Of a stretch of 64,000 bases of DNA, positions 2,912-48,673 are shown piece by piece; position 1 is the first letter of the stretch; each line of letters opens with the position of its first letter. Made by a program: the position numbers and the translations under genes. The notes beneath the pieces were generated by a model, which had not been told where the DNA came from, searched no databases, and was given only the letters and a program-made list of their open reading frames with translations. Origin of the DNA: Bacillota bacterium (GTDB lineage Bacteria > Bacillota_I > Bacilli_A > RFN20 > CAG-288); the NCBI GenBank assembly GCA_023398335.1, contig JAEWSJ010000006.1, positions 70,446 through 134,445 of the forward strand. Direction: 5' to 3'.

Positions 2912-2923
2912 GGAGAAAGAAAT

Positions 2924-4153
2924 ATGCGCGAAGTTAGATTTGAAAAATTAGATAAAACATCATTTCAGATGGTCCTTGAAAATGGATTAAAAGTTATTGT
3001 TGCTCCGATGACAAAGGCTAAAGAGGTTACTCTTGGTGTTAGTGTTGGCAAAGGTTTGTTTTTATCTGAAACAAGAATAGGCAATCAAGAAATATTTTTA
3101 GGAACTGCTAGTTACTTACAAGAAATTATTATGAAATATCATGCCAAAGAAGCAGATGTGCTATTTTCTAATGAGGTAAAAAACACTTCTTCTATCAAAG
3201 AAAGTTATACCAACTATAGTTTTACTGTAGGTCATAAAAACTATCTTGATTATATAACTCCATTGTTAACGTTAGTTGATAAATTTGTTGTTACAAATGA
3301 TGAAGTTGAAAATTTTAAGAGTGATTATTTAGCTTATTCCGAAAAGGAAAACGCCGAGATTAATTATCAAGTTAGAAAAAATTTATATAATGATTCACCT
3401 TTAAAGAAAGATTTATTTGGTAATATTTCTTCAATCAAAAATATTCATTTGGTAAGTTTACGTAAATTTTTCAACGAATATTATGATCCAAGTTACCTTA
3501 CTCTTGTTATCACTGGTAATGTTAAAGCGGAAGATATTGAAAAACAAGTTTTAAATTACCTCTATACTCCTCATGTGAAACATGAAGAAATAAAAGTATC
3601 AAAGTATTTTGAAGATTATCTTTCCGTTCCTTGTGCTGAAGATAAATCGTCTTCAAAAGATTTAACTGTTGCGATTAAATTTAATAAGAGAGAAGATTTA
3701 TTCAATGCAAACGGCGATAAAATATTCGCTTTGTATGAAACGTTACCTAATGTTTTGTTTTCAACTAATAATAAGAGTTTTGTAAAAAATGTTCCGTCAG
3801 TTGAAAAAATTGTTAAATCGGAATTTGTTGAGGGTGGAGAAGATGCATTTTTAATGGTATCTTTTAAAACCAACGATAAAGAAGCGTCGAAGAATGAGAT
3901 TGAAAAATATTTATCTCATCCATCAAAGATAATATCTTTTTTCAATATTAATGCGTTAAAAAGTGAAGTGCTACAAGCTAAGAAAGATCGTTATGTAAAT
4001 AATCCATCCGATTATTTTAATGATATTGTTAAGTCATTAGCTAATGGTTATTTTACTTTATCAATAGTTGAATCTATCAGAAGTTTTGGATTCTTTAAAT
4101 TCAATTCTTTTGTTAAAACAGTTTGTTCATTTAAGAGAATATATATAGCGTAA
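2924..4153 (+). CDS. M16 (insulinase)-like protein, zinc motif degenerate (predicted non-catalytic)
   Basis: 409 aa. The N-terminus LENGLKVIVAP...VGKG...GTASYLQEIIMK...NTSSIKESYTNYSF follows the M16 pattern L.NGl.v...G..e..G.aHflEHm.f...NA.T..d.T.Y, but HxxEH is replaced by SYLQEI. Confidence 0.6.
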   Translation: MREVRFEKLDKTSFQMVLENGLKVIVAPMTKAKEVTLGVSVGKGLFLSETRIGNQEIFLGTASYLQEIIMKYHAKEADVLFSNEVKNTSSIKESYTNYSFTVGHKNYLDYITPLLTLVDKFVVTNDEVENFKSDYLAYSEKENAEINYQVRKNLYNDSPLKKDLFGNISSIKNIHLVSLRKFFNEYYDPSYLTLVITGNVKAEDIEKQVLNYLYTPHVKHEEIKVSKYFEDYLSVPCAEDKSSSKDLTVAIKFNKREDLFNANGDKIFALYETLPNVLFSTNNKSFVKNVPSVEKIVKSEFVEGGEDAFLMVSFKTNDKEASKNEIEKYLSHPSKIISFFNINALKSEVLQAKKDRYVNNPSDYFNDIVKSLANGYFTLSIVESIRSFGFFKFNSFVKTVCSFKRIYIA

Positions 4154-4158
4154 TTATT

Positions 4159-5391
4159 ATGCGAGACATAAGGTTAAAGATTAAAGAGAAGGATAGTGAT
4201 GAGAATTTCATTGTTATTCAAGATGAAAAATACGGTGAGAATGTTTTTTCAACATACTTTATTATTAATAAAGTAAAAGTTGATAAAGCTGCTTTGCTTG
4301 TTTTTGTTAATTTTCTTAATTCTTCAACTTTAGTATATAAAAATAAATGGGAAAAGGAAAAAATAGAGGCTAATTTCTTTTCTTCACATTTATCCTTTGA
4401 ATTATCTGAATTTAGTCATGATTATATCTTAAAAGCTTGTGTTGTTTCTCCATTAAATATGGATCAAATAATGTTTAATCATATTAACGACAGAATACTT
4501 GGTTTCATGAATGAGGTTATGGTTAAAGTTCTGACGCGTAAAGAAAGAGATATCGAAAATGCCAAAAAAGAGATACTGCTTCAAAATATATTTCTGAATA
4601 CCCAAGTCAATTATTTAAGAAAATTATTCTATTTGAATTTTGATTCAAAAAACGTATCTTGTGCGTATTTAACTTGCCAAGGAACGGATTTTTCTCATAT
4701 AAAAAATATTAGTTTTACTAATCTTTTAAATAAGATTAAGGAAAGCCAAAGAATTGTTATTTACATAGGAAACACTGAATTTTCAAGAATGCTTAAATTA
4801 AAAAGCATGATGAAGCCAACTGAAAAAATCTTTCCACTTCGAAAAAACGAATTAGAAATAAATACTATTCGTGAACTTGCAAAAATCAGTGATAAACTAG
4901 TGGGAATTACATATGTCTATAAGAAACCAGAGATTGATTCTGAAAAGAATTTTCTGCTTAGTTTATTAGCGAAAGATGTTTTGTTTAATACTCATAATGG
5001 AGTTATTTGTTCTTTGTTAAAGTCTATTGACGGGTTTAATTCATTATTGGGTTATGATTACTCATACTTTGATAATTTTATTAAAGTATATATGTCTTTT
5101 GCGTATCTGAATAAAGAATCTCTTACTGAACTAGATGGTGTTATTAATAAGGTTAAAGAAGCAAATTTGTTGTTGAATTTTAATTCGTCTAAAGCAAGGC
5201 TAAATGATACTTTATTAGCTTCTTGCTATTCTTTATCTGCCCAAGCGGATTTCATTGCTTTGTCACGTTTACTTGGACTTGATTATTCCTTTGATAAATT
5301 AGTTAATTTGTTGTCAAATATTGAATATGACGATTTTGTTTCGTATTTAAGTCGTATTCATAAATGCGCATATATTGGAGCGAACGAATAA
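4159..5391 (+). CDS. Divergent M16-like / hypothetical protein, middle member of a tandem triplet
   Basis: 410 aa, the same size as its two neighbours and separated from them by only a few nt. Weak M16-like N-terminal pattern (..LVFVNFLNSSTLVYKNKWEKEKIEANFFSSHLSFELSEFSHDY) and no HxxEH. Confidence 0.4.
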   Translation: MRDIRLKIKEKDSDENFIVIQDEKYGENVFSTYFIINKVKVDKAALLVFVNFLNSSTLVYKNKWEKEKIEANFFSSHLSFELSEFSHDYILKACVVSPLNMDQIMFNHINDRILGFMNEVMVKVLTRKERDIENAKKEILLQNIFLNTQVNYLRKLFYLNFDSKNVSCAYLTCQGTDFSHIKNISFTNLLNKIKESQRIVIYIGNTEFSRMLKLKSMMKPTEKIFPLRKNELEINTIRELAKISDKLVGITYVYKKPEIDSEKNFLLSLLAKDVLFNTHNGVICSLLKSIDGFNSLLGYDYSYFDNFIKVYMSFAYLNKESLTELDGVINKVKEANLLLNFNSSKARLNDTLLASCYSLSAQADFIALSRLLGLDYSFDKLVNLLSNIEYDDFVSYLSRIHKCAYIGANE

Positions 5392-5392
5392 T

Positions 5393-6619
5393 ATGAAAAA
5401 TATCTTTAACAAATTAAGTGTTGATTCATTTACTCTAGATTCTGGTGTTAAAGTTTTTATGGTGAATTCTAAAACCTTTACATCTAATGTTGTATCTTTA
5501 TATGTTAATTCAGGTAATGTAATAAAAAGTTCTAAAATTGATTCGGTTACGGTTAATAAAGCTTTTCCATATGTTTTAAGTGAGGCTTTGAAGAATTCAA
5601 AATTCGGAGATTTAGATAATCTAACGTATTTACTTAATACGACATTTAATACGAAAATTACTCCTTCGTATTCCTTATATTCAATTTCTACTAAAAATAG
5701 TCTTGATGAAGCAATTAGATATTTGTCTTTTTATTCTGCTTCTTATGATTGCTCAAGTGATATGTTGGAGAATATAAAGAATAAACTTATAGTTAATTTA
5801 GCTTCACAAGACAAAATGCTTAATGAATTGTATTCGCAACTTGATGTATCCGCTAGGTTTACTAAAGAAGATGTTTTATCAATTAATCAAACTTCTATGC
5901 ATAAGTATTATTCAAGATCTTTTAGTTCGAGTAACATTTGTCTCTTTGCAGTTGGATGCTACGATAAAGATCAAATTAAAAATGTAATTAAAGCTTATCA
6001 TTTTGGCTCATTGAGAAAAGAAGAAGAAACAGTGGATTCTTATCAAGAGAGTTACGAAAAAGTTAACAAAATTATTATTGATAGAAACATTAAAGCAAGT
6101 TATTACCATATAAATTTTGGAGTTAAATTACCTAGCAGAGAAATGATGTTTAAAGATTATGGCAATGAATTATTTGCTTTAAATAATTACGCGAAAAATT
6201 TGATGTTTGGAGAACTTTCTCCGCTTTATAAGAAACTTAATGAAAAGGTCTTTGTTTCGCAATATGTTTCAAATGTTGTTGAAGCGAACGAAGAAACATA
6301 TATTAATGTTATGTTTTATGTCGATGATTATGAGACAGCAATTAAATTAATAAATGACCGCTTGAGTCATAATTGTTCACTTAAGGATTATATGCTGTTT
6401 AGGTCGGTTAAAAGAAAACTAGCGTCTTCTTACTTTATGGAACGTTATGATGTGAGCAAATACCTTTCAACCTTAGTTGAATGTTATGCTAATAACATCG
6501 ATATTGATGAATTTTATAAGAGTGTGGTTTTATTGAAGTTTGGCTCTTACAGAAAATATTCAAAGATGATTAAAAATTGTTCTTCAGTAATTACTATCGA
6601 TAAGGAATTAAATATATGA
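5393..6619 (+). CDS. M16 (insulinase)-like protein, zinc motif degenerate
   Basis: The ORF track starts at TTG 5375. ATG 5393 follows GGAG (5377-5380) and sits 1 nt after the upstream stop, so I prefer it. The pattern FTLDSGVKVFMV...VNSGN...KAFPYVLSEALKNS...NTKITPSYSLYSIS fits M16 topology without HxxEH. Confidence 0.55.
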   Translation: MKNIFNKLSVDSFTLDSGVKVFMVNSKTFTSNVVSLYVNSGNVIKSSKIDSVTVNKAFPYVLSEALKNSKFGDLDNLTYLLNTTFNTKITPSYSLYSISTKNSLDEAIRYLSFYSASYDCSSDMLENIKNKLIVNLASQDKMLNELYSQLDVSARFTKEDVLSINQTSMHKYYSRSFSSSNICLFAVGCYDKDQIKNVIKAYHFGSLRKEEETVDSYQESYEKVNKIIIDRNIKASYYHINFGVKLPSREMMFKDYGNELFALNNYAKNLMFGELSPLYKKLNEKVFVSQYVSNVVEANEETYINVMFYVDDYETAIKLINDRLSHNCSLKDYMLFRSVKRKLASSYFMERYDVSKYLSTLVECYANNIDIDEFYKSVVLLKFGSYRKYSKMIKNCSSVITIDKELNI

Positions 6620-6948
6620 TCGGTGTTGATATAGTTTTAATCTCGAGATTTCAGGAATCGTATTTAGATATTGCTTCGCGTTTTCTTTCGGATAGTGAAA
6701 GAGAAGAAATGAAGAGTTATGAAGCGTGTAGACAAGTGACGTATGTTGCCTCTCGGTTTGCCGGGAAAGAAGCGTATATAAAAGCTTCCTCTAGCAAAAA
6801 AGCTAAACTAAGTGATATAGAAATACTAAATTCTATTGACGGAAAGCCACATTTGTATTATAAAAAAAAGGAATGTGGTGAAATATCCTTATCACATGAT
6901 GAGTATTGCGTCGCATTTGTATTATTAAATAAGAAAGAAGATAACTAA
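6616..6948 (+). CDS. acpS: holo-[acyl-carrier-protein] synthase (4'-phosphopantetheinyl transferase)
   Basis: 110 aa. Starts MIGVDIV.ISRF, contains FAGKEAYIKA and ends ..ISLSHDEYCVAFVLL. ATGA overlap with the upstream stop. Confidence 0.85.
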   Translation: MIGVDIVLISRFQESYLDIASRFLSDSEREEMKSYEACRQVTYVASRFAGKEAYIKASSSKKAKLSDIEILNSIDGKPHLYYKKKECGEISLSHDEYCVAFVLLNKKEDN

Positions 6949-6949
6949 T

Positions 6950-9073
6950 ATGGCTTACCAAAATAACTTTGACGCATTTTTAAGAGAGAATGGAATAATT
7001 GAAGTTTCTATCAATAAGAAACTCAATGCCCACGACATCCAAAATGTTCGTCTATATGAAAACAAAAAATTCATCAAGAAATTAGAGCGCGTATCTAAAA
7101 CTGAATCTAAATCGACTTTTATTTACTCATTTAAGTTGGATTACGTTATTGTTCCAGGACGATTATATGAACTTGCAAATGAACATAACGAGTTTTCGCC
7201 TTTAAATATTTCTTCGATTGTTTTCGATGAAGAATTTGAAAGGAAATATCGTTATGAAGGAGAATTAGGTGCGATATATTCTAAAGAACGAACAATATTT
7301 AGAGTGTTTTCTCCTTTAGCTTCTTCCGGCGTTGTTAAAGTTTTTAAAAGAAGTGAAGATGAAGCAGAATATTTTACTTTCAGAAGAATTGAAGGTGGGG
7401 TGTTAGAAGCTGTCGCTGAAGGAGATTACGATGGTGCAGGGTATTTATTTATCGTTAAGATAAATGGCTATATTGTTTCGGTTGTAGATCCTTACGCTAA
7501 AAGTTTAGGCTCAAATTCGCGTTGCGGATTTGTCATTAATGAAGAGAGTGTTAAAGACATCGATTTAAATTACGATAAATTACCAGTGTTAAAGTCATGG
7601 AATGACGCCTCCATATATGAACTTGATGTTCGTGATATGACTTCTTTAACAAATATTGAAGGCAAAGGAACATATAGCGCTTTGTGTCTCGAAGGTCAAA
7701 AAGATCAATGTTGTAATCCAATTGGTTTCGATTATATTACTTCGTTAAATTTTACTCATATTCAACTTCTTCCTGTATATGATTTTCAAACGATTGATGA
7801 TGATAATCCTTCTTCAATGTATAACTGGGGATATGATCCGTTGTTTTACTTTGCTCCTGAAGGTAGTTATTCTTCTTCTCCTTCCTCTGCATATGCTAGA
7901 GTAAGAGAACTAAGAAAAGTTGTTTCCTCATTCCATAAGAAAGGAATGAGAGTGAATATGGATGTTGTTTTTAACCATACATTTTCACCTATGTCTAATT
8001 CTTTTGAAGCTTTATGTCCAAATTACTATTATCGCTTTAATAATGATAAAACAATGTCAAATGGCTCTATGTGCGGAAATGATTTAGAAACACGTAATTT
8101 TATGGTTAGAAAGTTAATCATTGATGCGTTGGTATATTTTGTAAAAATGTATGGCATGGATGGATTTAGATTTGATTTAATGGGAATAATTGATAAAGTC
8201 ACCTTGAAAAAAGCTTGGATGATACTTAAATCAATTAAGCCTGATATTATGTTTTACGGCGAGGGTTGGGATATGCCGACCGCTCTTGAATCTCATGAAA
8301 AATCTTCGATGAATAACGCCTTTGATTTGGAAAATATCGGATTCTTCAATGATAGATTTAGAGATACCGCTAGAGGAAAAAGCAACGATATAAAAGGCTA
8401 TCTTAATGGTGATTTAAATTATAGAGATGGCTTTAAGCATGTCTTCCTAGGCTCGACTATATCAATTGCATATCCACCTTTATTTGCTCATCCTCATCAA
8501 TCGATAAACTACGTTGAATGCCATGATAATTCCACCTTATTTGATAAGATGGTTTGCTCAAATGGGCATGAAGATGAAGTGACAAGATTAAAACGTGTTA
8601 AATTATTTAATGCGGCGATAATTCTTTCTTATGGTATTCCGTTTATTCATGCCGGACAAGAAGTCGGGTTATCAAAAAACGGTGTCGAGAATTCATATAA
8701 TTCGGGAGACTCGATTAACGGGTTTAAATATGATGTAGCTTATTCAAGAAAGAACATGATTTCATTTATTAATGATGCGATAAAATTAAAACGCTATTCT
8801 CGTTTGTTTTCATTGGATAATAAAAATGAAATTGAGAAAGTGTTAGATTTTGAAGATTTACCAAATGGAGCGTTAGCAGTTCATTACTTTGATGCTGAAA
8901 GTGAAAGAAAGATTGTAGCGATTATCAATCCTTCAAATATTACTGTTAAATATCAATTTGATAAATATTACAAGATAATTTTCAATGAAGCTGGGTGGAT
9001 AAATGAAGAGAATTATTCACAATTAGTCCTTGTAAATGGTATAACATTATTAGTAGCTGTATCGACGAAATAG
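6950..9073 (+). CDS. type I pullulanase / glycogen debranching enzyme (GH13), no signal peptide
   Basis: 707 aa with YNWGYDP, MDVVFNHT, GFRFDLMG, YGEGWD and YVECHDN (GH13 regions I-IV plus the pullulanase-specific YNWGYDP). Confidence 0.9.
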   Translation: MAYQNNFDAFLRENGIIEVSINKKLNAHDIQNVRLYENKKFIKKLERVSKTESKSTFIYSFKLDYVIVPGRLYELANEHNEFSPLNISSIVFDEEFERKYRYEGELGAIYSKERTIFRVFSPLASSGVVKVFKRSEDEAEYFTFRRIEGGVLEAVAEGDYDGAGYLFIVKINGYIVSVVDPYAKSLGSNSRCGFVINEESVKDIDLNYDKLPVLKSWNDASIYELDVRDMTSLTNIEGKGTYSALCLEGQKDQCCNPIGFDYITSLNFTHIQLLPVYDFQTIDDDNPSSMYNWGYDPLFYFAPEGSYSSSPSSAYARVRELRKVVSSFHKKGMRVNMDVVFNHTFSPMSNSFEALCPNYYYRFNNDKTMSNGSMCGNDLETRNFMVRKLIIDALVYFVKMYGMDGFRFDLMGIIDKVTLKKAWMILKSIKPDIMFYGEGWDMPTALESHEKSSMNNAFDLENIGFFNDRFRDTARGKSNDIKGYLNGDLNYRDGFKHVFLGSTISIAYPPLFAHPHQSINYVECHDNSTLFDKMVCSNGHEDEVTRLKRVKLFNAAIILSYGIPFIHAGQEVGLSKNGVENSYNSGDSINGFKYDVAYSRKNMISFINDAIKLKRYSRLFSLDNKNEIEKVLDFEDLPNGALAVHYFDAESERKIVAIINPSNITVKYQFDKYYKIIFNEAGWINEENYSQLVLVNGITLLVAVSTK

Positions 9074-9091
9074 ATTTTTGGAGGAATAAAC

Positions 9092-9886
9092 ATGTTTAAA
9101 TATGTTGGTTTTGTTTTACGAGCGGGGCCGAGAATCCTATTTTCTTATCCATGGATTAGAAAATATTCAAATTACCCGGAGAAGTATGATGCTTTTATTC
9201 GTTACTCCAAAGTTCATAAATTAGATGCAATTACTGTTCATAATTTAAAAACTGAATATTACATATCTGGTGAAGAAGGTCTTCCGAAAGATAAAGCAGT
9301 AGTATTTATGCCAAATCATCAATCTAATATGGATCCTTTATCATTGATTGCTATTTATGATAAACCTTTAACTTTTATCGCTAAAAAAGAAATAGTAAAA
9401 TTTCCTTTTGTCGGAAGAGTAGTTAAATCTATCGATGGTATCTTTATTAATCGACGTAATTTAAGGCAAGAAATTATGGTGGTCAAACAAGCCACTCAAC
9501 TTCTTATTGATCGGCCATATCAAAACTTTGTTATTTTCCCAGAAGGAACAAGATCAAAATCACTGAAGCACGATTTAGGTGAGTTTAAACCTGGCTCTTT
9601 TAAAGTTGCATATAATTCCCATCGACCGATAGTGCCAGTAGCAATATATGGAACATTTAGAGTATTGGATAAAAAAGCAGATATGAAGAGGTTCCCAATA
9701 CAAGTCAAGTTTTTAAATCCAATTTACTATGAAGAATATTCAAAATATAATACGATTGAATTATCTAAAATTGTTGAAGATATCGTAAAAAAAGAAGTCG
9801 ATATTTTGCGTAAGAAAGATGAAGAATTAGTTGCTAAGCACAAATATAAAAACTACAAAAAATCACTGGATATTCCAGGCGTATAA
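9092..9886 (+). CDS. plsC: 1-acyl-sn-glycerol-3-phosphate acyltransferase
   Basis: 264 aa. Acyltransferase motifs NHQSNMDP (HX4D) and FPEGTRS. Confidence 0.85.
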   Translation: MFKYVGFVLRAGPRILFSYPWIRKYSNYPEKYDAFIRYSKVHKLDAITVHNLKTEYYISGEEGLPKDKAVVFMPNHQSNMDPLSLIAIYDKPLTFIAKKEIVKFPFVGRVVKSIDGIFINRRNLRQEIMVVKQATQLLIDRPYQNFVIFPEGTRSKSLKHDLGEFKPGSFKVAYNSHRPIVPVAIYGTFRVLDKKADMKRFPIQVKFLNPIYYEEYSKYNTIELSKIVEDIVKKEVDILRKKDEELVAKHKYKNYKKSLDIPGV

Positions 9887-9913
9887 GATGGGTGTTCCCA
9901 TCTTATTTTTTTT
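9886..9913 (+). terminator. rho-independent terminator after plsC
   Basis: AGATGGG-TGTT-CCCATCT hairpin followed by TATTTTTTTT. Confidence 0.8.
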
Positions 9914-9923
9914 GCCTAAATAA

Positions 9924-9952
9924 TTGAAAATATACAGCGGAAAATATATAAT
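9924..9952 (+). promoter_or_regulatory. sigma-A-type promoter of the Mks-like operon
   Basis: TTGAAA (9924-9929), 17-nt spacer, TATAAT (9947-9952). GAGAGGA Shine-Dalgarno sequence precedes the TTG start at 9986. Confidence 0.6.
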
Positions 9953-9985
9953 TAAGTAGTCAGTAAATTAGAGAGGAACATAATT

Positions 9986-11455
9986 TTGAATTTATTTGAA
10001 AAACTACCAGAAAATTTCTTCTCAATCTTATCAAGAAAATTTAAATCCGTTTACGCTTTTTCATTAATAACCCTTTATGAGACCTTGAGAGTATATAAAA
10101 CACAAATAAAGAAATCGGATTATTTAAGTGCGTTAAGAAGTCATGGTGAAGAGATCATGAATCTTTTTGATGTCTCCTTAGATAAACTAGATGATAAAAC
10201 CGATGAAGAAGAAGTAACTTTTGAAGTTGATGAATCGACTTTGGCCGCCAAAACAAATTACATCTTCCGTAAATTGCTTATTACCGGATGGATTTCTGTT
10301 GAAAGGGATGTTAAGACTAATGTCGAATATGTTTATCTTCCGTCGTATTCAATTCGTATGTTGGAATTGTTGTCAAATTTGACTTCAAATTCTAATTTAT
10401 ATATTCCACTTGTTCATCAAACATATTCTGAATTATGTTTGGAAGATGAAAAAGAAGATGATTATATGTTTAAGAGCCTTGTCAGCGCTAGAAAGAATGC
10501 TGATGAACTAGAACTTAATGTTACTTTGCTTCATCATTCTATCTGCGTATTTGGGCATAATTTAAATTCGGTATTTGAACCTAATGAAGTACTTCGTCAA
10601 CACTTTGATATTTATCGTAGTGAAGTAAGTGATAAGATTTATCACCCGATGAAAACTTATGATTCTTTGGGCCTATATGCGATTCCTACAATCGAAATAT
10701 TGAAAAGATGGCAAAGAGATAAAAGAATTATGGGTAAGCTTGTTGCTCAAGCTCGTTTTGATTCTAATTATCTCAAACTTAAAGCGAGTGAAGTGGCTGA
10801 AGTTGTATATAAAATGCTTCAGGAAACTATCGATATATTTGGAAAACTTAATATTGCCTTTAGCGACATTGATAAAGCAAACTCAAAATATACTGAAGCG
10901 GTTCAAAAGAAAGTTAATTTCTTGTCAAACGCTGATAAATCCATAAAAGGTAAATTAGATGCCATCATCTTGGCGATGGCTAAAGGAATATCTTCTTCTA
11001 GTATTAACGACGCTCAAAATGATTATGAGAATGTTGAAATAATCTCCAAAGTAGGAGAGACCATTAATATTTATCATCAAGGTTATTTAGATTCCGATTC
11101 CTTAACATTACCATTCAAGCGTAAAATTAAGGAAAATCTAGATCCGTTACCATTAGAGGATGCGTATTTTGGAGATGATTCCTTGATGAACGACTTCTTG
11201 GACTCCGAAGTTAATAATTTCTCGCAAGATGCAATTATTGATTTCTATTTGAGAAATTTTGGAGATAAGAATGTCGTCACGACTGATGATTTTATTATTG
11301 AAGATGTTGATGAACTTGTTCTTTACATCTTAGGTATTGTTAAAGCTGAATTTGACGAAATGTTCTTCTCAATTGAAAAAGTTGGGGAGAAAACAATTAA
11401 TGGTAATTTCCAAATACCACTATATAAGTTTAAAAGAGTAAGAAAGGGGAGATAA
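9986..11455 (+). CDS. MksF/JetA-like kleisin-type subunit (putative)
   Basis: 489 aa, first gene of a coupled triad. Size, position and acidic helical composition match the kleisin subunit of MksFEB/JetABC clusters. No catalytic motif. Assigned mainly by context. Confidence 0.5.
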   Translation: MNLFEKLPENFFSILSRKFKSVYAFSLITLYETLRVYKTQIKKSDYLSALRSHGEEIMNLFDVSLDKLDDKTDEEEVTFEVDESTLAAKTNYIFRKLLITGWISVERDVKTNVEYVYLPSYSIRMLELLSNLTSNSNLYIPLVHQTYSELCLEDEKEDDYMFKSLVSARKNADELELNVTLLHHSICVFGHNLNSVFEPNEVLRQHFDIYRSEVSDKIYHPMKTYDSLGLYAIPTIEILKRWQRDKRIMGKLVAQARFDSNYLKLKASEVAEVVYKMLQETIDIFGKLNIAFSDIDKANSKYTEAVQKKVNFLSNADKSIKGKLDAIILAMAKGISSSSINDAQNDYENVEIISKVGETINIYHQGYLDSDSLTLPFKRKIKENLDPLPLEDAYFGDDSLMNDFLDSEVNNFSQDAIIDFYLRNFGDKNVVTTDDFIIEDVDELVLYILGIVKAEFDEMFFSIEKVGEKTINGNFQIPLYKFKRVRKGR

Positions 11456-11456
11456 T

Positions 11457-12113
11457 ATGTTTGTTGAAGATTTTGAAAAATTAACTCGTGGTGAGCAAAA
11501 TCAGTTTAAAGCAATTACTAATGACATCTTATACACATGTTTTATCGTTAGAAAAAGCTTTGATAAAATCTCTAATATGAGCAAAATAAATCCGTCATAT
11601 TTATTTATTGAAAGACATTTTGATTTATTTAATAATTATCTTTCTTATATGGATATGGAAATAGTTAAAGATGATGATAATGGTGTTGTGTTTTTAACAT
11701 CTGAGTCGGAGACTAATAGATTAAGACTTGATTCCGTTACAACTTTAGTTGTATATGCTTTACGTTCTTTCTACGAAGAAAAATTAGCAAATAATCCTTC
11801 TTCTTTAGAAGTTTATATGGACTCCGTAAGTTTTAAATTATTCTTAAAGCAACTCGGCTTAACAACAGTAAATAAAAGGCTTTCCTCTGTCTCTTTAGCT
11901 TCATCTTTAAGAAATTTGTCTCATTACAATATTATTTGTCGCGCTCAACATAATTTCTCAGACCCATCTTATTCATTTTACATTTTACCTTCCATTAGAT
12001 ACGTTATTTCTAATGCTAAGTTAAATGCTTTATATGATCAAATAGAGAAAATTAATAATGGAGATTCTTTGGAAGAAGAGAATTCATTACTTAGTGATGG
12101 AGGAGAAAACTAA
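11457..12113 (+). CDS. MksE/JetB-like subunit (DUF4194-like, putative)
   Basis: 218 aa. Starts 1 nt after the upstream stop, and its stop overlaps the next start. The segment ..FIERHFDLFNNYLSYMDMEIVKDDDNGVVFLTSE.. resembles the DUF4194 pattern (L..Y....GLEL..DE..G.AFL). Confidence 0.55.
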   Translation: MFVEDFEKLTRGEQNQFKAITNDILYTCFIVRKSFDKISNMSKINPSYLFIERHFDLFNNYLSYMDMEIVKDDDNGVVFLTSESETNRLRLDSVTTLVVYALRSFYEEKLANNPSSLEVYMDSVSFKLFLKQLGLTTVNKRLSSVSLASSLRNLSHYNIICRAQHNFSDPSYSFYILPSIRYVISNAKLNALYDQIEKINNGDSLEEENSLLSDGGEN

Positions 12114-15100
12114 TGAAAAAAATAGTTAAACTTCGTTTGATAAATTGGCATTTGTTTTTTAATGAAACTACTGATATTGATGATATTACTTTTTTAACTG
12201 GCGCTAACGGCACAGGAAAATCAACAATCATTGATGCCATGCAAATTCTTCTTCTCGGCGATACTTCCGGACGTAACTTTAACAAAGCTGCTAACGATAA
12301 AACCGGTCGTACTTTAAGAGGATATTTACGTGGTGAACTTGGTGAAACTTCTGATGGAAAAATCATGGCTTTACGTCCAGGAAGATTCACTTCATATGTT
12401 GCAATGGAATTTTATGATGATTCAAGCGACTCATCATTTACTTTAGGTATTGTCTTTGATTGCTTTGAAGATGATTCAGAAGAACATCATTTCTTCTTTA
12501 TCAAAGATAAATTTCCAACGAACAACTTTACCAATAGAGAGATGATTGATAAAGAACAACCTCGTCCGTTGGCATATAAAGAATTATCCAAATTCTTATC
12601 TGAAACATATCAACCAAGTCAATTTAAATTCTTTGATTCAAATACGATGTATCAAAACTTTATTAAAGAAGAACTTGGTAATTTACCAGATAAGTATTTT
12701 ACTTTATTTAAAAAAGCTGTTTCGTTCTCACCTATTACAAATATTTCTAATTTTATTACAGAATTTGTTTGCGATATTGATTACAACATTGATATTGAAC
12801 CAATGAGACAAAACATCGAGCAATACAAGTTACTTGAACTGGAAGCTAAACGTATACAAACTAAAGTTGATGCTTTAAATGGCATCAAAGAAGCGTATGA
12901 AAGTTTCAGAAAAAATATCGATAGTATGTCTTTGGCAAATTACGTTATTACTAGAGCTAGATTTGAGGCATATAAACAAGAAATTGATCAATATGAGAAG
13001 AATCTTTCTGATAAGAAACAACGCAAAGATGAAATTAATCAAAAACTTATTGAGAATGACGTTCAAATTAAAGAATTAAAGAGCGATAAAGAGCAATATT
13101 TAGCTAAGAAAGTTGGTTCTTCGGGTTATTCGCTTTCTTCTTCTTTAATTTCTAAAAAGAATCAAGCTTTAGAGAAGATTCAAACCATTGAACAAAACTA
13201 TCAAACGATGACTGCAACTATTACTTCATCAATTAACGATTATGAAAGTATTATTAAACGTATCCAGTCTCGTTTATCTTCTTTTGATGATTCATTCTTA
13301 ACTGATGATGAACAAAATATGTTGGATGAATTTAAGAATATTCAAAACGAATTTGCTCAAACAATATTTGAAGTAAAATCAGCTATAAATAGCAAGTCAT
13401 TAAGTGCTGAAATAATCAAAGAATTACAAGCGGAAATGTCTTCCTATCATTCTTATGCTTCAAAGATGATTCGTACTTTGGAGACTTCAGTCTTTAATTT
13501 ACAAGGCAACATCTCATCTCTTGATATGGAACTTTGTGAGATTAACAGTGGACGTAAACCATTTAAGAATATTTATCTTGAAGTTAAATCCGCCCTTGAA
13601 AATGATTTGAAATTAAAATATCCACATGCGAAAGTTGAGACCTATTGCGACTTAGTAGATATTCGTGATAAGAAATGGACAAAGTCTATTGAAGCTGCTA
13701 TATTCAATCAAAAGTTTAACTTCTTCGTGGAAGAAGATTATTATGAAGAAGCCGCTAAATGTTTAGCTCGCATTGCACGTGAGTATAATTATTACAATAT
13801 TTCTGTCGTTGATACTGCAAAGTTAATCGATCGTAATTTTGAAGCGAATCCAAATAGCGTGGCTGAAGAAATAATTACCGATCATGAAGGAGCAAGAGCG
13901 TATACAAACTTCCTTCTTGGACGTATTAAGAAATGCGATACTTTTGCTGAAGCGAGAGAATCTGGCAACGGACTTTTAGCCAATTGTACCGGATATAGAA
14001 ACTTTGCCTCGTGGTATTTAAATATCAAACTTGCTGAGGTTTCATTTATTGGAACTAAGCTTGATAACTCCACTATTCTTGCTAAAAAAGATGAATTTTC
14101 TTCATATAATAAAGACTTTGAAAAATACAATGAATTACTAAATTATTTTAATAGCATTGCTTTAATTGAAGTTATCAATACTACTCAAGCCCGTACTTTC
14201 GCGGCTGATATTAACGATTATTCACCAAAGATGAAAACCTTGGATGATGAAGTCGAAAGATACGAACAAGAACTAGAAGAAGGTTCACTTGGTGAAGTAA
14301 ATGATTTCGATAAGAAAATCACTGCTATTGATGAAGATATTGCTTCCATTGAAAATGAAAGTAATAACTTACGTGTTCAACTTGGTGGAATTGAAACTCA
14401 AATTCTTCAACTTGAAAACGAATTAATTCCAAATAAGAGAAATCTTCTATCTCATCAAGGGGTCGAACTACAAAAATTTGATGCTGCTTTAGTTGAAGAG
14501 AAGTTTGATCCTTTCTTCGCTAATGCGATGGAGAATTTATCTTTGAATCAAATTGTTACCGATGCTCAAACTCATTATGTTCAAACTCAGAATAAACTTG
14601 GCGCATCAAAATCCAGACTTATGGATTTACGTAGTAAGTACGTGGCAACATACAATTTAAGTTATGATGTTACAAAGGAAAATACAAATGAAGAGTTTGA
14701 TTCGGAATTAACTAATCTTGAAACTGTTTTACTTCCAACTTACGCTTCCAAAATTGATTCTGCACATAAGAAAGCTATTAAAGAATTTAAAGATGATTTC
14801 ATCTATAAACTCAGAACAAGCTTTGAAACAATTAAGGCACAAATTAACGATTTAAATACCGCGTTAAAAGAAGTAAAATTCGGACGTGATTCATATCGTT
14901 TCTCTGTTGAGCCAAATAAAGATTATATGAATTACTATAATATGATTACAGATGATTTATTATTAAATGTTGGTGATGCAGAAGATATATATCTTGAAAA
15001 ATATAAAGATAGCATGGCTGACTTATTCAATATGATCTCTGATTCAACTGATCAATCAGGCGATGTTAAAGCTCAAATACTAGAAAACATTCAAAAGTTT

Positions 15101-15514
15101 ACTGATTATCGAACCTATTTGATTTTCGATCTTTTAGTTAGAAGAGGCGAAAACGAAGTTGAATCATCCTTAGCACGTACATTTAAACGTCAATCTGGTG
15201 GTGAAACTCAAACCCCATTCTACATTTCAATTTTAGCTTCCTTTGCTCAACTTTATCGTTGCCAAGATCAATCTAACAACGATACGTTAAGACTGGTTAT
15301 CTTTGATGAAGCTTTCTCAAAGATGGATGGTAGCAGAATTAAAGAAGCGGTTGGTTTACTCAGAAGTTTCGGCTTACAAGCAATATTATCAACTCCTTCA
15401 GAAAAATTGCGAGATTTATCAAAAGAAGTTGACTTGGTTCTTGTTGCAATTCATGATACTAAGAAGAATAGATCCTATCTTGATAAGTATCAAGAAGTTA
15501 AGAGAATTAACTAA
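12113..15514 (+). CDS. MksB/JetC-like SMC-family ATPase
   Basis: 1133 aa. N-terminal head LINWHLF..ITFLTGANGTGKSTIIDAMQILLLG (Walker A), a long heptad-rich middle, and a C-terminal signature SGGETQTPFYISILASFAQLY plus Walker B LRLVIFDEAFSKMD. Confidence 0.8.
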   Translation: MKKIVKLRLINWHLFFNETTDIDDITFLTGANGTGKSTIIDAMQILLLGDTSGRNFNKAANDKTGRTLRGYLRGELGETSDGKIMALRPGRFTSYVAMEFYDDSSDSSFTLGIVFDCFEDDSEEHHFFFIKDKFPTNNFTNREMIDKEQPRPLAYKELSKFLSETYQPSQFKFFDSNTMYQNFIKEELGNLPDKYFTLFKKAVSFSPITNISNFITEFVCDIDYNIDIEPMRQNIEQYKLLELEAKRIQTKVDALNGIKEAYESFRKNIDSMSLANYVITRARFEAYKQEIDQYEKNLSDKKQRKDEINQKLIENDVQIKELKSDKEQYLAKKVGSSGYSLSSSLISKKNQALEKIQTIEQNYQTMTATITSSINDYESIIKRIQSRLSSFDDSFLTDDEQNMLDEFKNIQNEFAQTIFEVKSAINSKSLSAEIIKELQAEMSSYHSYASKMIRTLETSVFNLQGNISSLDMELCEINSGRKPFKNIYLEVKSALENDLKLKYPHAKVETYCDLVDIRDKKWTKSIEAAIFNQKFNFFVEEDYYEEAAKCLARIAREYNYYNISVVDTAKLIDRNFEANPNSVAEEIITDHEGARAYTNFLLGRIKKCDTFAEARESGNGLLANCTGYRNFASWYLNIKLAEVSFIGTKLDNSTILAKKDEFSSYNKDFEKYNELLNYFNSIALIEVINTTQARTFAADINDYSPKMKTLDDEVERYEQELEEGSLGEVNDFDKKITAIDEDIASIENESNNLRVQLGGIETQILQLENELIPNKRNLLSHQGVELQKFDAALVEEKFDPFFANAMENLSLNQIVTDAQTHYVQTQNKLGASKSRLMDLRSKYVATYNLSYDVTKENTNEEFDSELTNLETVLLPTYASKIDSAHKKAIKEFKDDFIYKLRTSFETIKAQINDLNTALKEVKFGRDSYRFSVEPNKDYMNYYNMITDDLLLNVGDAEDIYLEKYKDSMADLFNMISDSTDQSGDVKAQILENIQKFTDYRTYLIFDLLVRRGENEVESSLARTFKRQSGGETQTPFYISILASFAQLYRCQDQSNNDTLRLVIFDEAFSKMDGSRIKEAVGLLRSFGLQAILSTPSEKLRDLSKEVDLVLVAIHDTKKNRSYLDKYQEVKRIN

Positions 15515-15520
15515 TTATTT

Positions 15521-15550
15521 AAGCGCGTTGATAAATTCAACGCGCTTTTT
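15521..15550 (+). terminator. rho-independent terminator after the Mks-like operon
   Basis: AAGCGCGTTGA-TAAAT-TCAACGCGCTT hairpin followed by TTT. Confidence 0.85.
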
Positions 15551-15650
15551 AGATGAAAAACATATTATTTTCGACTAAAGTCTTTACATTTGTGTAAATA
15601 TATGTTAAAAAAATAAACGTTAACAAAAATTGTTAACATATTTGTCACAA

Positions 15651-15895
15651 AGTAGAGGCGCAATTATTAATTAGTAACAAGTGCTAGTGAAAAGGATTCA
15701 CGTTATGCATTTGCGAAAGGGAATGGTTGCCGAAAGACTTCTTCTAATCCTTAAGAGAAGATCTTGGTCAATTTCATAAGATGAATTTGACTGTCACTTA
15801 ATTTAATTAAGTGGAGAGCTATTGTTGTGTTGAACTAAAAAATTTATTAGTATCAATATAGCGATGGTTCATTAACATGTCCATCGCTTTTTTCT
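15651..15895 (+). promoter_or_regulatory. lysine riboswitch (L-box) with terminator expression platform
   Basis: L-box core blocks occur in order: AGAGGCGC (15654), AGTAAC, GAAAGGGAATGGTTGCCGAAAG, GGTCAA, GACTGTCAC, AAGTGGAGAGCTATTG. The hairpin AGCGATGG(15860-15867)...CCATCGCT(15881-15888) plus a T-run follows, 38 nt before the ABC operon start. Confidence 0.85.
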
Positions 15896-15932
15896 TCTTA
15901 TGGCAAATAGATAATGCATTGGAGGAAATAAT

Positions 15933-16814
15933 ATGAAAAATGCAAAATTTTTAGGAGTCTTAGCTTTAGCTGCTGGACTTGTTGTTGGTGTATCTAGCTG
16001 CGGTGAAAAGAGTGTTCTTACTATCGTACATTTTGATCAAACAATATTAGGTGATACTCAAAAGGACTTAGGAGTTTCGATTGGCTTAAGAAAAACTGAT
16101 ATGGAGTTAAAAGCTAAGGTAAATACATCTTTATCTTCCGTTTCAACCGCTACAAGAAACACATGGATGACTGAAGCACTTGAAAGATCAACGGCAGAAA
16201 TTATCGCATCTGATTCCGCTATTACTACAGCTCCATTTGACTCAGCTAAAGAAACCATCACAGTTGGACTTGAATGTAATTATGCACCATTTAACTGGAC
16301 TGAAGTAAGTGCGAATAATTATTCGTGGCCTATTGAAGGGTCATCAGGTCAGTTTGCCGATGGATATGATATTACTATCGCTCGTAAAATTGCTGAAGAT
16401 TTAAACTGCAACTTAAAGGTTGTTAAAATGGAATGGGATGCTTTAATTCCATCATTAACAAGTAATACTATCGATCTTGTTATTGCTGGTATGACTGATA
16501 CTGAAGAAAGAAGATTATCGATTGATTTTACCGATGAATATTATCGTTCTGAAATGGTTCTCGTGGTAAATTCATCTTCCTCATATGCTACTGCTACTTC
16601 CTTAGAAGACTTTAGGGGTGCTAAGATTGTAAGCCAAACATCAACGGTTACCGATGATGTTATCGAAACTTGGGTTGATTCATTTGGAATCACTCACTTA
16701 AATGCTATGTCTAGTTTTGCTGTTTGTGCGACAGCAGTTACAAGTGGTGCGGCTGATGCGATGACGGCTGAACTTCCAGTTGCCACTTCCATTGTTAATG
16801 GAGCGAATAGATAA
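15933..16814 (+). CDS. amino-acid ABC transporter substrate-binding lipoprotein (family 3), apparently circularly permuted
   Basis: 293 aa. Lipoprotein signal ..LVVGVSSC(23). Canonical SBP_bac_3 core from residue ~107 (ITVGLECNYAPFNW ... DLVIAGMTDTEERR..IDFTDEYY ... ADAMTAELPVA). A C-terminal-type segment (LGVSIGLRKTDMELKAKVNTSL) sits at the N-terminus. Confidence 0.8.
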   Translation: MKNAKFLGVLALAAGLVVGVSSCGEKSVLTIVHFDQTILGDTQKDLGVSIGLRKTDMELKAKVNTSLSSVSTATRNTWMTEALERSTAEIIASDSAITTAPFDSAKETITVGLECNYAPFNWTEVSANNYSWPIEGSSGQFADGYDITIARKIAEDLNCNLKVVKMEWDALIPSLTSNTIDLVIAGMTDTEERRLSIDFTDEYYRSEMVLVVNSSSSYATATSLEDFRGAKIVSQTSTVTDDVIETWVDSFGITHLNAMSSFAVCATAVTSGAADAMTAELPVATSIVNGANR

Positions 16815-17578
16815 TGGGATTTTGGGAAAGAATTGCATATTTATTTGAAAACTATGGTGTTACTTTTGGTAACGGTGTTTGTTCAACATTAATTCTTGCA
16901 ATATTTGGTACGTTTGTCGGTTTGTTTCTTGGTATATTATTGGCATTAGTTCGTAATATTGAATATAAAGAAGCTGATCGAAAGATTACTAGGATAATTA
17001 AAAGATTTGCAAAGACAATTGTCTCGTGTTATATCAATTTCTTCAGAGGAACTCCAATGATGGTTCAAGCGATGATTTTCTTCTTTGCTATTCCAGTATG
17101 GACTTCTATTACAGGAGCGTGGATATTTAACGGATATATGGTTTGTGGATTAATTGTTATTACTATTAATACTGCAGCGTATATGGCTGAAATTGTTCGC
17201 TCTGGCTTAAATGGAATTGATAAAGGGCAAATAGAAGCGGCACGTAGTACCGGTATGTCATATTTTCAAACGATGTTTACCATCGTTATGCCTCAAGCGT
17301 TAAAGAATTCTTTACCAACAATTCTTAATGAATATATTGTTAATGTCAAAGACTCTTCGGTATTAAATGTTATTGGTCTTACTGAATTATACGCGAGTGT
17401 AAGTATTGCCACAAATAAAAATTATTTCAAAGTTGAAGGCTATGTTATTATCGCAGTTATATATTTAATCCTTACTCTTATTGCGACATTTATAGTTAAA
17501 TTAATTTCGATGAAATTAGATGGAAAGAAAATTACTCTTAATCCGTTTAAGCACGCTAAATCAGTGGAGGTAAGATAA
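16814..17578 (+). CDS. amino-acid ABC transporter permease (His/Glu/Gln/Arg/opine family)
   Basis: 254 aa, multi-TM. EAA-type loop region ..[29 protein letters not shown]. Confidence 0.85.
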
Positions 17579-17579
17579 C

Positions 17580-18620
17580 ATGAGTGATAATATATTGTCC
17601 ATTCAAAATCTGTCTAAACATTTCGGCTCTACTAAAGTCTTAAATGATATATCTTTAGAAGTTAATAAAGGTGAATGTATTGCCATTATTGGTCCTTCTG
17701 GCAGTGGTAAATCAACGTTCTTGCGTTGCATTAATCTTCTTGAGCAAGCGGATGGTGGGAAGGTATTATTTACAACTTTGGAATATTACCATGACTCGAT
17801 TAATAAAATTAAAGAAATAGAAAAACACGCTAGAGTTTTAATTAATTCTCTCGATAAAAAATCTGAATCATATAAAGATGATGTTGAAGATATTAATTCC
17901 GAGAAAGATGCTAAATTATCCGAAATTAAAAAGGTCAGAGTTACAAGAAGAATTGATGACAGTGGATTTTTAAGACTAAAAGAAATAAAAAGAGAAATCA
18001 AAGCTTTGAAGAAAGATAATTCGATTGATAAGGATGATAAAGCGGTTAGATTTGAAAATTACCGTGCTGAAATTGCTGATTTAAAAAGAAATGCGGAACA
18101 CATTGATATTAATAAAGTTCGTACTCAAATCGGAATGGTATTTCAATCGTTTAATTTATTCAATAATTTCAATGTTATTGATAATTGTATTATTCCTCAA
18201 AGAAAAGTACTTAAAACACCACATGATATTGCTAGATCTATCGCTTTAGACAATTTAACTAAGGTTGGCATGATTGACCGAATAAATTATCGAGTCAGTG
18301 AAATATCTGGCGGACAAAAGCAACGTGTTGCAATAGCTAGAGCATTATCGATGAATCCTGAAGTCTTATTATTCGATGAACCGACTTCTGCACTTGATCC
18401 TGAAATGGTCGGAGAAGTCTTAAATGTTATGAAAAACTTAGCAAATGATGGAATGACTATGATTGTAGTTACACACGAAATGGAATTTGCGCGTAACGTT
18501 GCTGATAAAGTAGTCTTCATGGCTGATGGTTATGTTGTTGATGAAGGAACTCCTCATCATATTTTTGAAGAATCAACGAATCCTCGTTTATTAGCGTTTT
18601 TAAGAAAAGAAGTTCAATAA
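17580..18620 (+). CDS. amino-acid ABC transporter ATP-binding protein with a large charged insertion
   Basis: 346 aa. Walker [11 protein letters not shown]-loop [10 protein letters not shown], signature [14 protein letters not shown], Walker [12 protein letters not shown] and H-loop VTHEM. About 105 extra Lys/Glu/Asp-rich residues lie between Walker A and the Q-loop. Confidence 0.9.
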
Positions 18621-18863: not shown

Positions 18864-19892
18864 ATGAATAAGAATGTAATTTCTCAATCAGATGAACTCA
18901 TAAAGTTAAAAAAGAAATATAAAAAGAACAATTTACTTGTTAGCATTTTAATATCTTTTCTTATTCTTATTTTGTGCGTAGCGTATTTGCTATGTTATAT
19001 TTTGAGTCAAACAGAATATATGGGAAATGTGATGACCCCTATGCTCAATATATCTTTCTTAGTTTACTTTGATGTTTCTTCTTATATTTTTGATTTTGCA
19101 AATGTTAATAACATCTATCGTATTTTATCAATAGTTGTTGCTTTATTGATTTCTTTCTTTGCCGGGTTTACATATAGTAAATTACACATTAAAAAAATAA
19201 ATAAGAAATTTAAGAGCGATTATTATAAGTTCTTAGTTGCTGAAGCAAAAATCAACGGAATTGTTATTGATGTTAAAACAGATTCTGCATCTAATGACGA
19301 TGCTAAAAACTTAGACTTAATGAATATTTCTTTACCTGAAAGAGAAAAAACTTATCAGTTTTCGACTCCAATGCTTTCATGGGAAGGTGTTCAATATAAA
19401 TATATATTAGGAGATAAAAAGCGCGATGGCTTTTTGATTAATACCAGTTTATCGCGAGCTCGTACTCAAGGACTAATTCAGTTACGTACTTTCGGCAGTC
19501 CTTCTATACATCAATATAACGGGCTAACAATTAATAAATATGGCTTCGGTGAAGACAATAGAATAGCTAATTTTGTTTGCTATACTTCTTTAGGACCGGA
19601 TATTTATTTAGCGGTCAATGTTAAAGTTGCTGAAGCTTTAGCTGATTTAAAGAATTTCGTCCAGTCTGATTTAGTTGTATCTGTAATTGGTGATAGACTA
19701 CAAATTTTCATCGATGGATTTAGATTGAATTTATCGCGTGGAATAAAAGATAAAATTGAGAATGATGCTTTGGAAAGACAAGCTGAAGCAATTGTTGCTC
19801 TTCATCAAGTTATTACTGCTCTTTCAGTTGCATTAAGTGGTGAAATCACTTTTGCCCCTGAGAGTAAAGGAAACGGTATTTCTAGTTATTAA
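18864..19892 (+). CDS. membrane protein of unknown function
   Basis: 342 aa. Basic N-terminus, two or three hydrophobic helices within residues ~25-105, then a ~230-aa soluble domain. No motif I recognise. Confidence 0.5.
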   Translation: MNKNVISQSDELIKLKKKYKKNNLLVSILISFLILILCVAYLLCYILSQTEYMGNVMTPMLNISFLVYFDVSSYIFDFANVNNIYRILSIVVALLISFFAGFTYSKLHIKKINKKFKSDYYKFLVAEAKINGIVIDVKTDSASNDDAKNLDLMNISLPEREKTYQFSTPMLSWEGVQYKYILGDKKRDGFLINTSLSRARTQGLIQLRTFGSPSIHQYNGLTINKYGFGEDNRIANFVCYTSLGPDIYLAVNVKVAEALADLKNFVQSDLVVSVIGDRLQIFIDGFRLNLSRGIKDKIENDALERQAEAIVALHQVITALSVALSGEITFAPESKGNGISSY

Positions 19893-24513: not shown

Positions 24514-24906
24514 GGGGATGAAAAGGTTTCGACAGGTAAGGAGTAGTTCGAATTGCAGTCGAGCGGTGACGTTATCACTAAAAATAGATAAATGGCAAAA
24601 CAATTTATCAAAATCATGCGCCTGCTTTCGCAGCCGCTGCTTGCTAATTAAGCGTATCGCAGCATAAGTTTGACTCTCTGAGTCACGCATCATCTTATTA
24701 AATCTCGCTCGTCTTTCGGAGCTAGTAAGGTGTAACCAAGAAGGGCTAGTTACATATATGATAGTTATTATGTAATGAAAATAAAATTATCGACCATAAT
24801 GACCTTTTGTTCACTTAGGTTTTTATGGTTATAAAAGTGGACTAAACTGTAGTAGTTTGGATGGTGCCTTATTTGGACAGGAGTTCAACTCTCCTCATCT
24901 CCACCA
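24514..24906 (+). ncRNA. ssrA: tmRNA (transfer-messenger RNA)
   Basis: 5' GGGGATGAAAAGGTTTCGACAGG and 3' GGACAGGAGTTCAACTCTCCTCATCTCCACCA (tRNA-like domain). Tag ORF at 24594-24647 begins GGCAAAAC as in B. subtilis and encodes GKTIYQNHAPAFAAAAC-stop. Confidence 0.9.
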
Positions 24907-38654: not shown

Positions 38655-38670
38655 ACCCTTCTTCCTTTTT

Positions 38671-40086: not shown

Positions 40087-40112
40087 AAATTATCTCCTCC
40101 ATTTTATTATAC

Positions 40113-40144
40113 TAAAAAACCACACTTCAAAGCGATGTGTGGTT
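40113..40144 (-). terminator. rho-independent terminator after rplT
   Basis: On the minus strand: AACCACAC-ATCGCTTTGAA-GTGTGGTT followed by TTTTT. Confidence 0.8.
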
Positions 40145-40159
40145 AAGTTTAAATAGAAA

Positions 40160-40516: not shown

Positions 40517-40534
40517 TTTAAATTCTCCCTTTCA

Positions 40535-40735: not shown

Positions 40736-40747
40736 CGAAATTTCCTC

Positions 40748-41299: not shown

Positions 41300-41310
41300 A
41301 AGCGTTACCT

Positions 41311-41446: not shown

Positions 41447-41452
41447 TTAATA

Positions 41453-48672: not shown

Positions 48673-48673
48673 A

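Follow-up and report, generated by a model that had tools for sequence, protein, structure and literature searches.

Within a 64-kb stretch of a Bacillota genome (64,000 nucleotides of contig JAEWSJ010000006.1, GTDB lineage RFN20, CAG-288; hereafter the window, to which coordinates refer unless a locus is named), three coupled genes, jetA, jetB and jetC, encode a kleisin, a KITE protein and an SMC-family ATPase. By sequence this triad is the core of a type I Wadjet, and it lacks the nuclease gene jetD. Our results suggest that it derives from a type I Wadjet, has been domesticated without its nuclease and probably works on the host chromosome as a loop-extruding condensin resembling MksBEF and MukBEF. 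Vertical inheritance throughout the lineage, the conserved synteny and purifying selection at a housekeeping level make a condensin the preferred reading of its function. An earlier note on this DNA had offered three readings (a second condensin, a Wadjet derivative that lost its nuclease, or a variant using a nuclease encoded elsewhere).

The three proteins belong to type I Wadjet families

9986-11455, + strand: jetA, TTG start, 489 amino acids (aa); kleisin subunit, type I Wadjet JetA (PF18982/DUF5716)
11457-12113, + strand: jetB, 218 aa; KITE subunit (DUF4194, MukE-like)
12113-15514, + strand: jetC, 1133 aa; SMC-family ATPase (MukB-like)

JetA matched Pfam PF18982 with an E value of 5.6e-65 (220 bits, model positions 17-433 of 434) and the PADLOC model JetA1 with 297.7 bits over residues 1-484. 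JetB matched Pfam DUF4194 (E = 5.8e-18, 65.6 bits, cut-off 32.7) and, over its full length, PADLOC JetB1 (233 bits, residues 1-209), whilst it stayed below the threshold of Pfam MksE (PF21980; 16.5 bits, cut-off 27). Tested against the kleisin and KITE Jet families of Pfam and PADLOC, both proteins thus match, and the DUF4194-like pattern that the earlier note had seen in the 218-aa protein is that domain. The note had also taken the 489-aa protein for a Wadjet kleisin of family DUF3375; the Wadjet JetA identity holds, but the family is PF18982/DUF5716. Neither partner matched MukE or MukF in Pfam and further hidden Markov model (HMM) scans, and neither had a match in a sequence search of the PDB.

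JetC matched PADLOC JetC1 at 1028 bits, with residues 1-1130 aligned to positions 1-1089 of the 1097-position model. Its Pfam matches were AAA_29, SbcC_Walker_B and MukB_N, the last covering only the first ~60 residues (35 bits, cut-off 23). By contrast with these matches, the canonical Smc model TIGR02169 scored 33.8 bits against a cut-off of 729, and Pfam SMC_N (25.6 bits, cut-off 40) and SMC_hinge (14.8 bits, cut-off 22.5) also stayed below threshold. In the PDB only the head segments of JetC were matched, by solved proteobacterial JetC heads at E ~1e-10 and also by MukB heads. The motifs of the ATPase head are as follows.

12200-12226, + strand: JetC Walker A, residues 30-38, GANGTGKST
15194-15211, + strand: JetC ABC signature motif, residues 1028-1033, SGGETQ
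15293-15328, + strand: JetC Walker B and D-loop, residues 1061-1072, LVIFDEAFSKMD

All three are intact. Across the 90 sequences of the JetD-less clade described below, Walker A residues G30, G35, K36, S37 and T38 are each 98% conserved, and conservation is 100% for S, G, G, E and Q of the signature motif and for D1065, E1066, A1067, F1068, S1069, K1070 and D1072 of the Walker B/D-loop segment. Together with the full-length JetC1 match and the Pfam matches, this bears out the split SMC-type ATPase head proposed from the sequence.

JetD is absent from the window and from a well-supported clade

As probes we used two JetD proteins encoded in canonical jetABCD operons of Bacillales plasmids. They recognise each other at E ~1e-37, and neither tblastn nor phmmer found a JetD with them in the window. 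Precomputed Pfam calls from the source scaffold (ENA ERZ28599291, scaffold_27, 140.6 kb) held no JetD, Toprim, SMC hinge, ScpA or ScpB in the window plus ~10 kb upstream and 1.5 kb downstream. The earlier claim that the unit has no jetD therefore stands by each of these searches and by the JetD profile described below.

Related loci were collected in two scans. A scan of one genome per species returned 484 matching stretches, and the best 80 of these all came from metagenome-assembled genomes of uncultured Bacilli with names typical of the reduced-genome gut lineages of the RF39/RFN20 type (Candidatus Enterosoma, Candidatus Scatoplasma, CAG:568, CAG:288, CAG:826 and 'Mollicutes bacterium'). 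The other scan, of metagenomes, took as seeds the canonical systems and the clade member that had diverged most; it gave 80 loci at 81-28% identity, amongst which every locus in a context of plsC, unk342 or glgC was without JetD.

In a neighbour-joining tree of 153 JetCs, the 1133-aa ATPase of the window falls among type I JetCs in one clade of 90 sequences with a bootstrap of 99/100. This clade holds 81 non-redundant sequences at 99% identity and 70 clusters at 90%, and includes all 78 syntenic loci. Its JetCs share at most 44% identity with any sampled JetD-linked JetC; for the window protein the figure is 35%.

We then searched six-frame translations at maximum sensitivity with a JetD profile HMM built from 56 JetDs. 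In the 1.75 Mb of clade loci (~10 kb each side of jetABC) and the scaffold, the best score was 8.3 bits (E = 2.8), whereas true JetDs reached 362 bits or more. Of the clade loci, 84 extend for at least 1.5 kb 3' of jetC (69 of them for at least 7.5 kb), and none of the 84 holds a JetD or a remnant; the comparison with sister genomes proposed in the note thus revealed no trace of jetD. Outside the clade, JetD was present at 57 of 63 JetC loci, including all the nearest outgroups (L093, L096, L097, L098, L101 and L156), and in all 57 it lies immediately 3' of jetC. About 55 of the 80 loci from the metagenome scan carry a jetD of ~410-460 aa in this position, and six outgroup loci that had been undecided proved under the HMM to carry truncated JetDs at contig ends.

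To our knowledge, all Wadjet types carry JetD, and a single ancestral loss is therefore the parsimonious reading of this distribution. With a JetD-less clade supported at 99% and nearest relatives that all have jetD, the triad is most parsimoniously a Wadjet derivative that lost its nuclease, the second of the three readings. Our literature search turned up no description of this clade, nor of a Wadjet without JetD in Bacilli of the RF39 type.

Some loci outside the clade also lack jetD. A 251-kb replicon of Agathobacter rectalis (NZ_CP143948, locus L084), a cultured Lachnospiraceae strain, carries a type I jetA-jetB-jetC at 2762-8354 of that locus, followed by a carbonic anhydrase gene; this is a separate, sporadic nuclease-less case. 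Metagenome loci L115, L117, L150 and L167 have room 3' of jetC and no JetD or remnant by HMM. Locus L145 (~7073-14503) has jetABCD followed by a second jetA-jetB pair, and looks like tandem Wadjets cut by the contig end.

The aligned JetD-docking site of JetC is acidic across the clade

In the E. coli JET system, JetD aCAP is attached at the JetC head's 'larynx', where JetC F919 enters a hydrophobic pocket of aCAP; the substitution F919E inactivates the JET nuclease in vivo (10.1101/2023.11.03.565488). The corresponding segment and the hinge region of the window protein are listed here.

14957-15004, + strand: JetC head larynx segment, residues 949-964, LLLNVGDAEDIYLEKY; holds the counterpart of E. 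coli F919
13649-14065, + strand: JetC hinge region, residues ~513-651; clade pattern ...EARxSGNGLLxxCTGYRNFA...

F919 aligned to residue 956 of the window JetC both by phmmer against PDB 8AS8 and by mafft --addfragments, and the window protein reads G954-D955-A956-E957 at this site. JetD-bearing JetCs have L (84%) or I (13%) at position 955, 97% L/I in all, and F at position 956 in 80%. In the JetD-less clade, position 955 is D or E in 89%, position 956 A or D in 89% and position 957 E or D in 94%. A Jensen-Shannon scan of 1083 columns ranked column 955 fifth, and columns 956-958 came in at ranks 36-42. As judged from these alignments, the hydrophobic residue that docks JetD is replaced in clade JetCs by a conserved acidic patch. 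The sporadic JetD-less loci differ from the clade here: a hydrophobic residue is retained in L115, L117, L167 and the A. rectalis replicon, which has F at the docking position (L150 has no full-length JetC). Their sequences fit a recent or only apparent loss of jetD.

The hinge is also remodelled relative to JetD-bearing relatives, with 9 of the 30 most clade-discriminating columns lying at 593-651; the weak Pfam SMC_hinge match spans residues 513-616. According to a recent preprint, the hinge takes part in bypassing obstacles while extrusion proceeds. The N-terminal helix of JetB has been predicted to contact JetD, and we considered its 'IFDR-like' motif as a marker of JetD binding. The acidic/aromatic motif in this position (MFxE[DE][YF]EKL in the clade) is conserved in JetD-bearing relatives as well, and is not diagnostic.

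The triad is inherited as a fixed core operon

Across the clade, pul-plsC lies upstream of jetABC, and unk342 and/or glgC-glgD-glgA downstream. Flanking gene families are common to 66-95% of clade locus pairs at matched JetC divergence, whereas pairs of JetD-bearing loci below 75% JetC identity share only 1-7%. On this contrast, the JetD-bearing relatives behave like mobile defence cassettes and the clade like a fixed core operon. The synteny persists across genomes down to 33% JetC identity.

JetC has also diverged together with its neighbours. Its pairwise identities correlate with those of GlgA (Spearman 0.84), PlsC (0.73) and GlgC (0.69), and on average it has diverged by 46%, just as much as GlgA and GlgD. 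In close clade pairs, the ratio of nonsynonymous to synonymous substitution rates (dN/dS) is mostly 0.02-0.08 for all three jet genes and does not differ from that of glgC, glgA and plsC; for jetA the values run from 0.02 to 0.07, and for jetB from 0.02 to 0.11 in most pairs, with one pair at 0.18. The triad is thus under the same purifying selection as its housekeeping neighbours.

A fourth jet gene was never found 3' of jetC in the clade loci examined. When the recurrent neighbours, including the gene after jetC, were clustered across loci and compared with Pfam and PADLOC, no nuclease or defence family emerged. We also considered an alternative fourth subunit, and rejected it: what follows jetC differs between loci, and the recurrent neighbours (glgC, a membrane protein lacking annotation, short hydrophobic open reading frames, an SF2 helicase, a GGDEF protein) include no nuclease. 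The helicase occurs in the CAG:568-like sublineage, 21 bp 3' of jetC in L010 (13508-14722 of that locus) and likewise in L099 and L100; it has DEAD, Helicase_C and ResIII domains, is ComFA-like by eye, and gave generic helicase matches only, with no defence-specific family. The unk342 gene lies directly 3' of jetC in at least 11 clade genomes and 5' of glgCDA in many more. Clade loci span 24% to 62% G+C with the same jetABC synteny, so large compositional shifts occurred in the lineage after the operon was fixed. In 16 clade loci ftsK lies within 10 kb of jetABC.

A domesticated condensin is the favoured explanation

A working hypothesis derives MukBEF and MksBEF from Wadjet plasmid-defence motors that, having lost the nuclease, were taken into service for maintaining the chromosome. 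The triad fits this scenario step by step, and we accordingly propose that it is a domesticated loop-extruding condensin. JetA as kleisin, JetB as a KITE dimer and JetC as SMC ATPase would still assemble into an ATP-driven motor that entraps DNA and extrudes loops. The loss of jetD would be a single event in the common ancestor of a large, uncultured and mostly gut-dwelling group of Bacilli with reduced genomes. After it, the hydrophobic residue that the JetC head offered to JetD would have been exchanged for the acidic patch, and the motor would have become a fixed, vertically inherited core operon. As it has no cutter, such a motor could not restrict plasmids by cleavage; loop extrusion would instead compact and resolve sister chromosomes.

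Several points weigh against this proposal. The chromosomal role is drawn from evolutionary behaviour and from analogy. The JetC tree is an unrooted neighbour-joining tree, and loss rather than gain of JetD rests on parsimony. Around F919 the alignment between E. coli and Firmicutes is at low identity (domain score 21.5 bits), though two methods agree, and the nearest JetD-bearing outgroups have L/I followed by S/A at position 956, such that only the hydrophobic residue at 955 is near-universal. The conservation of the acidic patch could point to a new partner instead of a simple loss. Only ~10 kb each side of jetABC was covered per genome, and an effector elsewhere is possible. A motif search of the ~1.75 Mb of clade loci (for smc also of the JetD-bearing loci) found no smc, rnc, ftsY or parB, but ~20 kb per genome is too small a span to inform on the coexistence of Smc-ScpAB in the lineage.

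The principal rival is a JetD-less immune system against plasmids and other mobile DNA, in which loop extrusion would sense small circular DNA and then act in one of two ways: by recruiting another effector encoded elsewhere, with the acidic patch or else the remodelled hinge as a possible contact, or by silencing or destabilising the element uncut. Smc5/6 has been proposed to act on elements without cutting. The proteins are type I Wadjet by sequence, the docking segment is conserved (G-D/E-A/D-E) and not drifting, and the hinge is systematically remodelled, so that either site may mark a new interaction; the search covered ~10 kb of flank per genome. We keep this rival open because the new acidic patch is conserved, but consider it unlikely. 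All four subunits were required for restriction in the Wadjet systems tested so far (PMC10586767; 10.1101/2022.10.04.510915), and in no sublineage does a nuclease or defence family adjoin the triad, the adjacent genes being variable. The deep synteny, the co-divergence with housekeeping neighbours and the low dN/dS are also unlike the JetD-bearing relatives.

A canonical Wadjet whose JetD is encoded elsewhere and acts in trans, the third reading of the earlier note, seems very improbable. It draws on the conserved N-terminal motif of JetB, predicted to touch JetD, and on scans that covered locus flanks and not whole genomes. Against it, every one of the 57 JetD-bearing relatives has jetD immediately after jetC, and the flanks of 84 clade genomes hold neither JetD nor a remnant. 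The equivalent of F919 is acidic or alanine throughout the clade, at a residue where F919E abolishes JET activity in E. coli. A canonical JetD elsewhere is disfavoured on this last ground; a partner other than JetD is possible. The source is a metagenome scaffold, which raises the question of a decaying remnant or of an assembly artefact lacking jetD. This explanation is effectively refuted by the intact reading frames in ~80 non-redundant genomes, the low dN/dS, ATPase motifs conserved at 98-100%, and the terminator and riboswitch-led operon directly after jetC. The JetC protein is moreover found on four contigs with mostly identical neighbouring genes, and a jetD dropped in assembly is therefore not credible.

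The clade has value as a model. Existing examples for the Wadjet-to-condensin hypothesis are very old and highly diverged, and the JetD-less clade offers a cleaner case: it combines a single, well-supported loss of JetD, JetD-bearing sisters at up to 44% JetC identity, a docking substitution, remodelling of the hinge, and evolution that turned from mobile to fixed and housekeeping-like. This makes the transition experimentally tractable. For annotation, type I JetA, JetB and JetC matches in these gut Bacilli should not be counted as Wadjet defence. A bolder version, which we hold to be rather doubtful, is that JetABC is the sole SMC-type condensin of an order-level lineage of reduced-genome Bacilli and has replaced Smc-ScpAB. 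If true, a domesticated defence system would have taken over chromosome segregation a second time, independently and in the manner of MukBEF, in Firmicutes and with JetD-bearing sister systems still extant for comparison. An absence of Smc-ScpAB from the lineage would raise the importance of the triad sharply.

Operon layout and boundaries

9883-9913, + strand: intrinsic terminator of the upstream plsC; hairpin 9883-9906 with a 10-bp stem, 4-nt loop and T8; left boundary of the unit
9924-9952, + strand: sigma-70-type promoter TTGAAA-17-TATAAT, predicted for jetABC from a consensus match only
9971-9977, + strand: ribosome-binding site GAGAGGA, 8 nt 5' of the jetA TTG, read from the sequence
15521-15550, + strand: intrinsic terminator after jetC; hairpin 15521-15547, stem AAGCGCGTTG / CAACGCGCTT, 7-nt loop, T-run; right boundary of the unit
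15645-15829: lysine riboswitch, 100 bits, heading the next operon (amino-acid ABC transporter)
18864-19892, + strand: unk342, 342 aa, N-terminal transmembrane segments, no Pfam or PADLOC match

The three coupled open reading frames of 489, 218 and 1133 aa were recovered with the same coordinates and junctions as in the earlier note. jetA and jetB are spaced by 1 nt, and the jetB stop and jetC ATG overlap at base 12113; half of the clade loci have a -4 or -1 overlap at the jetB/jetC junction. For jetA, the PADLOC JetA1 model aligns from residue 1 and so supports the TTG start.

The plsC terminator was picked up by a consensus scan and folds at -17.6 kcal/mol (z -4.7, 0/200 shuffles as stable). 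The terminator after jetC was missed by that scan and found by reading the sequence; its fold is at -19.0 kcal/mol (z -5.6, 0/200 shuffles as stable). The predicted promoter agrees with the consensus at 11/12 positions and is the top-scoring site within 8800-16200. Scanning and folding thus uphold the terminator and near-consensus promoter upstream and the strong terminator downstream. With these flanking signals, and with the lysine riboswitch opening the next operon, the jetABC unit is self-contained. Annotation of the neighbours (scaffold Pfam calls, Pfam and PADLOC) likewise agrees with housekeeping surroundings and no defence island.

The block at 15645-18620, comprising the lysine riboswitch and the substrate-binding protein, permease and ATPase of the ABC transporter, separates jetC from unk342 in just two cases, the window lineage and L004, its closest relative. 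Elsewhere in the clade, unk342 or glgC lies directly 3' of jetC.

Other features of the window

A cyclic di-GMP (c-di-GMP)-I riboswitch (51037-51118, 58.7 bits) heads a minus-strand operon (41503-51118) whose products are a 504-aa protein with a Flg_new domain, two proteins of 272 and 916 aa, and an LRR_5 protein of 1466 aa; these are probably giant surface proteins under c-di-GMP control. A transfer-messenger RNA lies at 24514-24906 on the + strand (137 bits); its ARAGORN tag, GKTIYQNHAPAFAAAAC, has an unusual Cys end, and the tag end may be mispredicted. Directly after ftsK (278-2911), three tandem open reading frames of ~410 aa occupy 2924-6619 (+ strand); two have a Peptidase_M16_C match, one of them weak, and the middle one has no Pfam match. 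Near 38.6 kb the genes turn from the + to the - strand, and beyond ~54 kb the cumulative GC skew levels off. We considered a replication terminus ~25-40 kb from jetABC (38600-54000 region) and rejected it, as the skew changes only weakly and a dif-like site was not found.

Comparison with known systems

The closest known systems are the type I Wadjets (JetABCD, also MksBEFG or EptABCD), anti-plasmid SMC nucleases known for instance from E. coli GF4-3, from P. aeruginosa PA14 and from operons of Firmicutes, one of them on Cohnella herbarum plasmid NZ_CP051681. They share with the triad the same three families in the same order, the coupled operon and the intact ATPase. The triad differs in having no jetD or remnant, and in its acidic docking patch and remodelled hinge. 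Type I Wadjet loci are also mobile and patchy, whereas the triad locus is fixed and vertically inherited.

With Smc-ScpAB the triad has in common the split ABC ATPase head, the long coiled coil and the hinge. Its partners are JetA and JetB, however, not ScpA and ScpB, and Smc models stay below cut-off. MukBEF of gamma-proteobacteria is likewise a Wadjet-like SMC complex fixed in its lineage, where it serves as a chromosomal condensin. Lineages with MukBEF have replaced Smc-ScpAB. The triad belongs to a different phylum, and its partners have no MukE or MukF match.

The MksBEF condensin of P. aeruginosa shares the kleisin-KITE-SMC triad without a Toprim subunit. Nuclease-less Mks systems are thus already known, and this clade is an independent origin within Firmicutes type I Wadjet, with a JetB under the MksE cut-off. 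MksBEF has been described as scattered by horizontal transfer, whilst the window triad is kept in synteny, as a core operon, by an entire lineage. As it is Jet type I by sequence, the triad would be a functional analogue of MksBEF and not a member of its sequence family.

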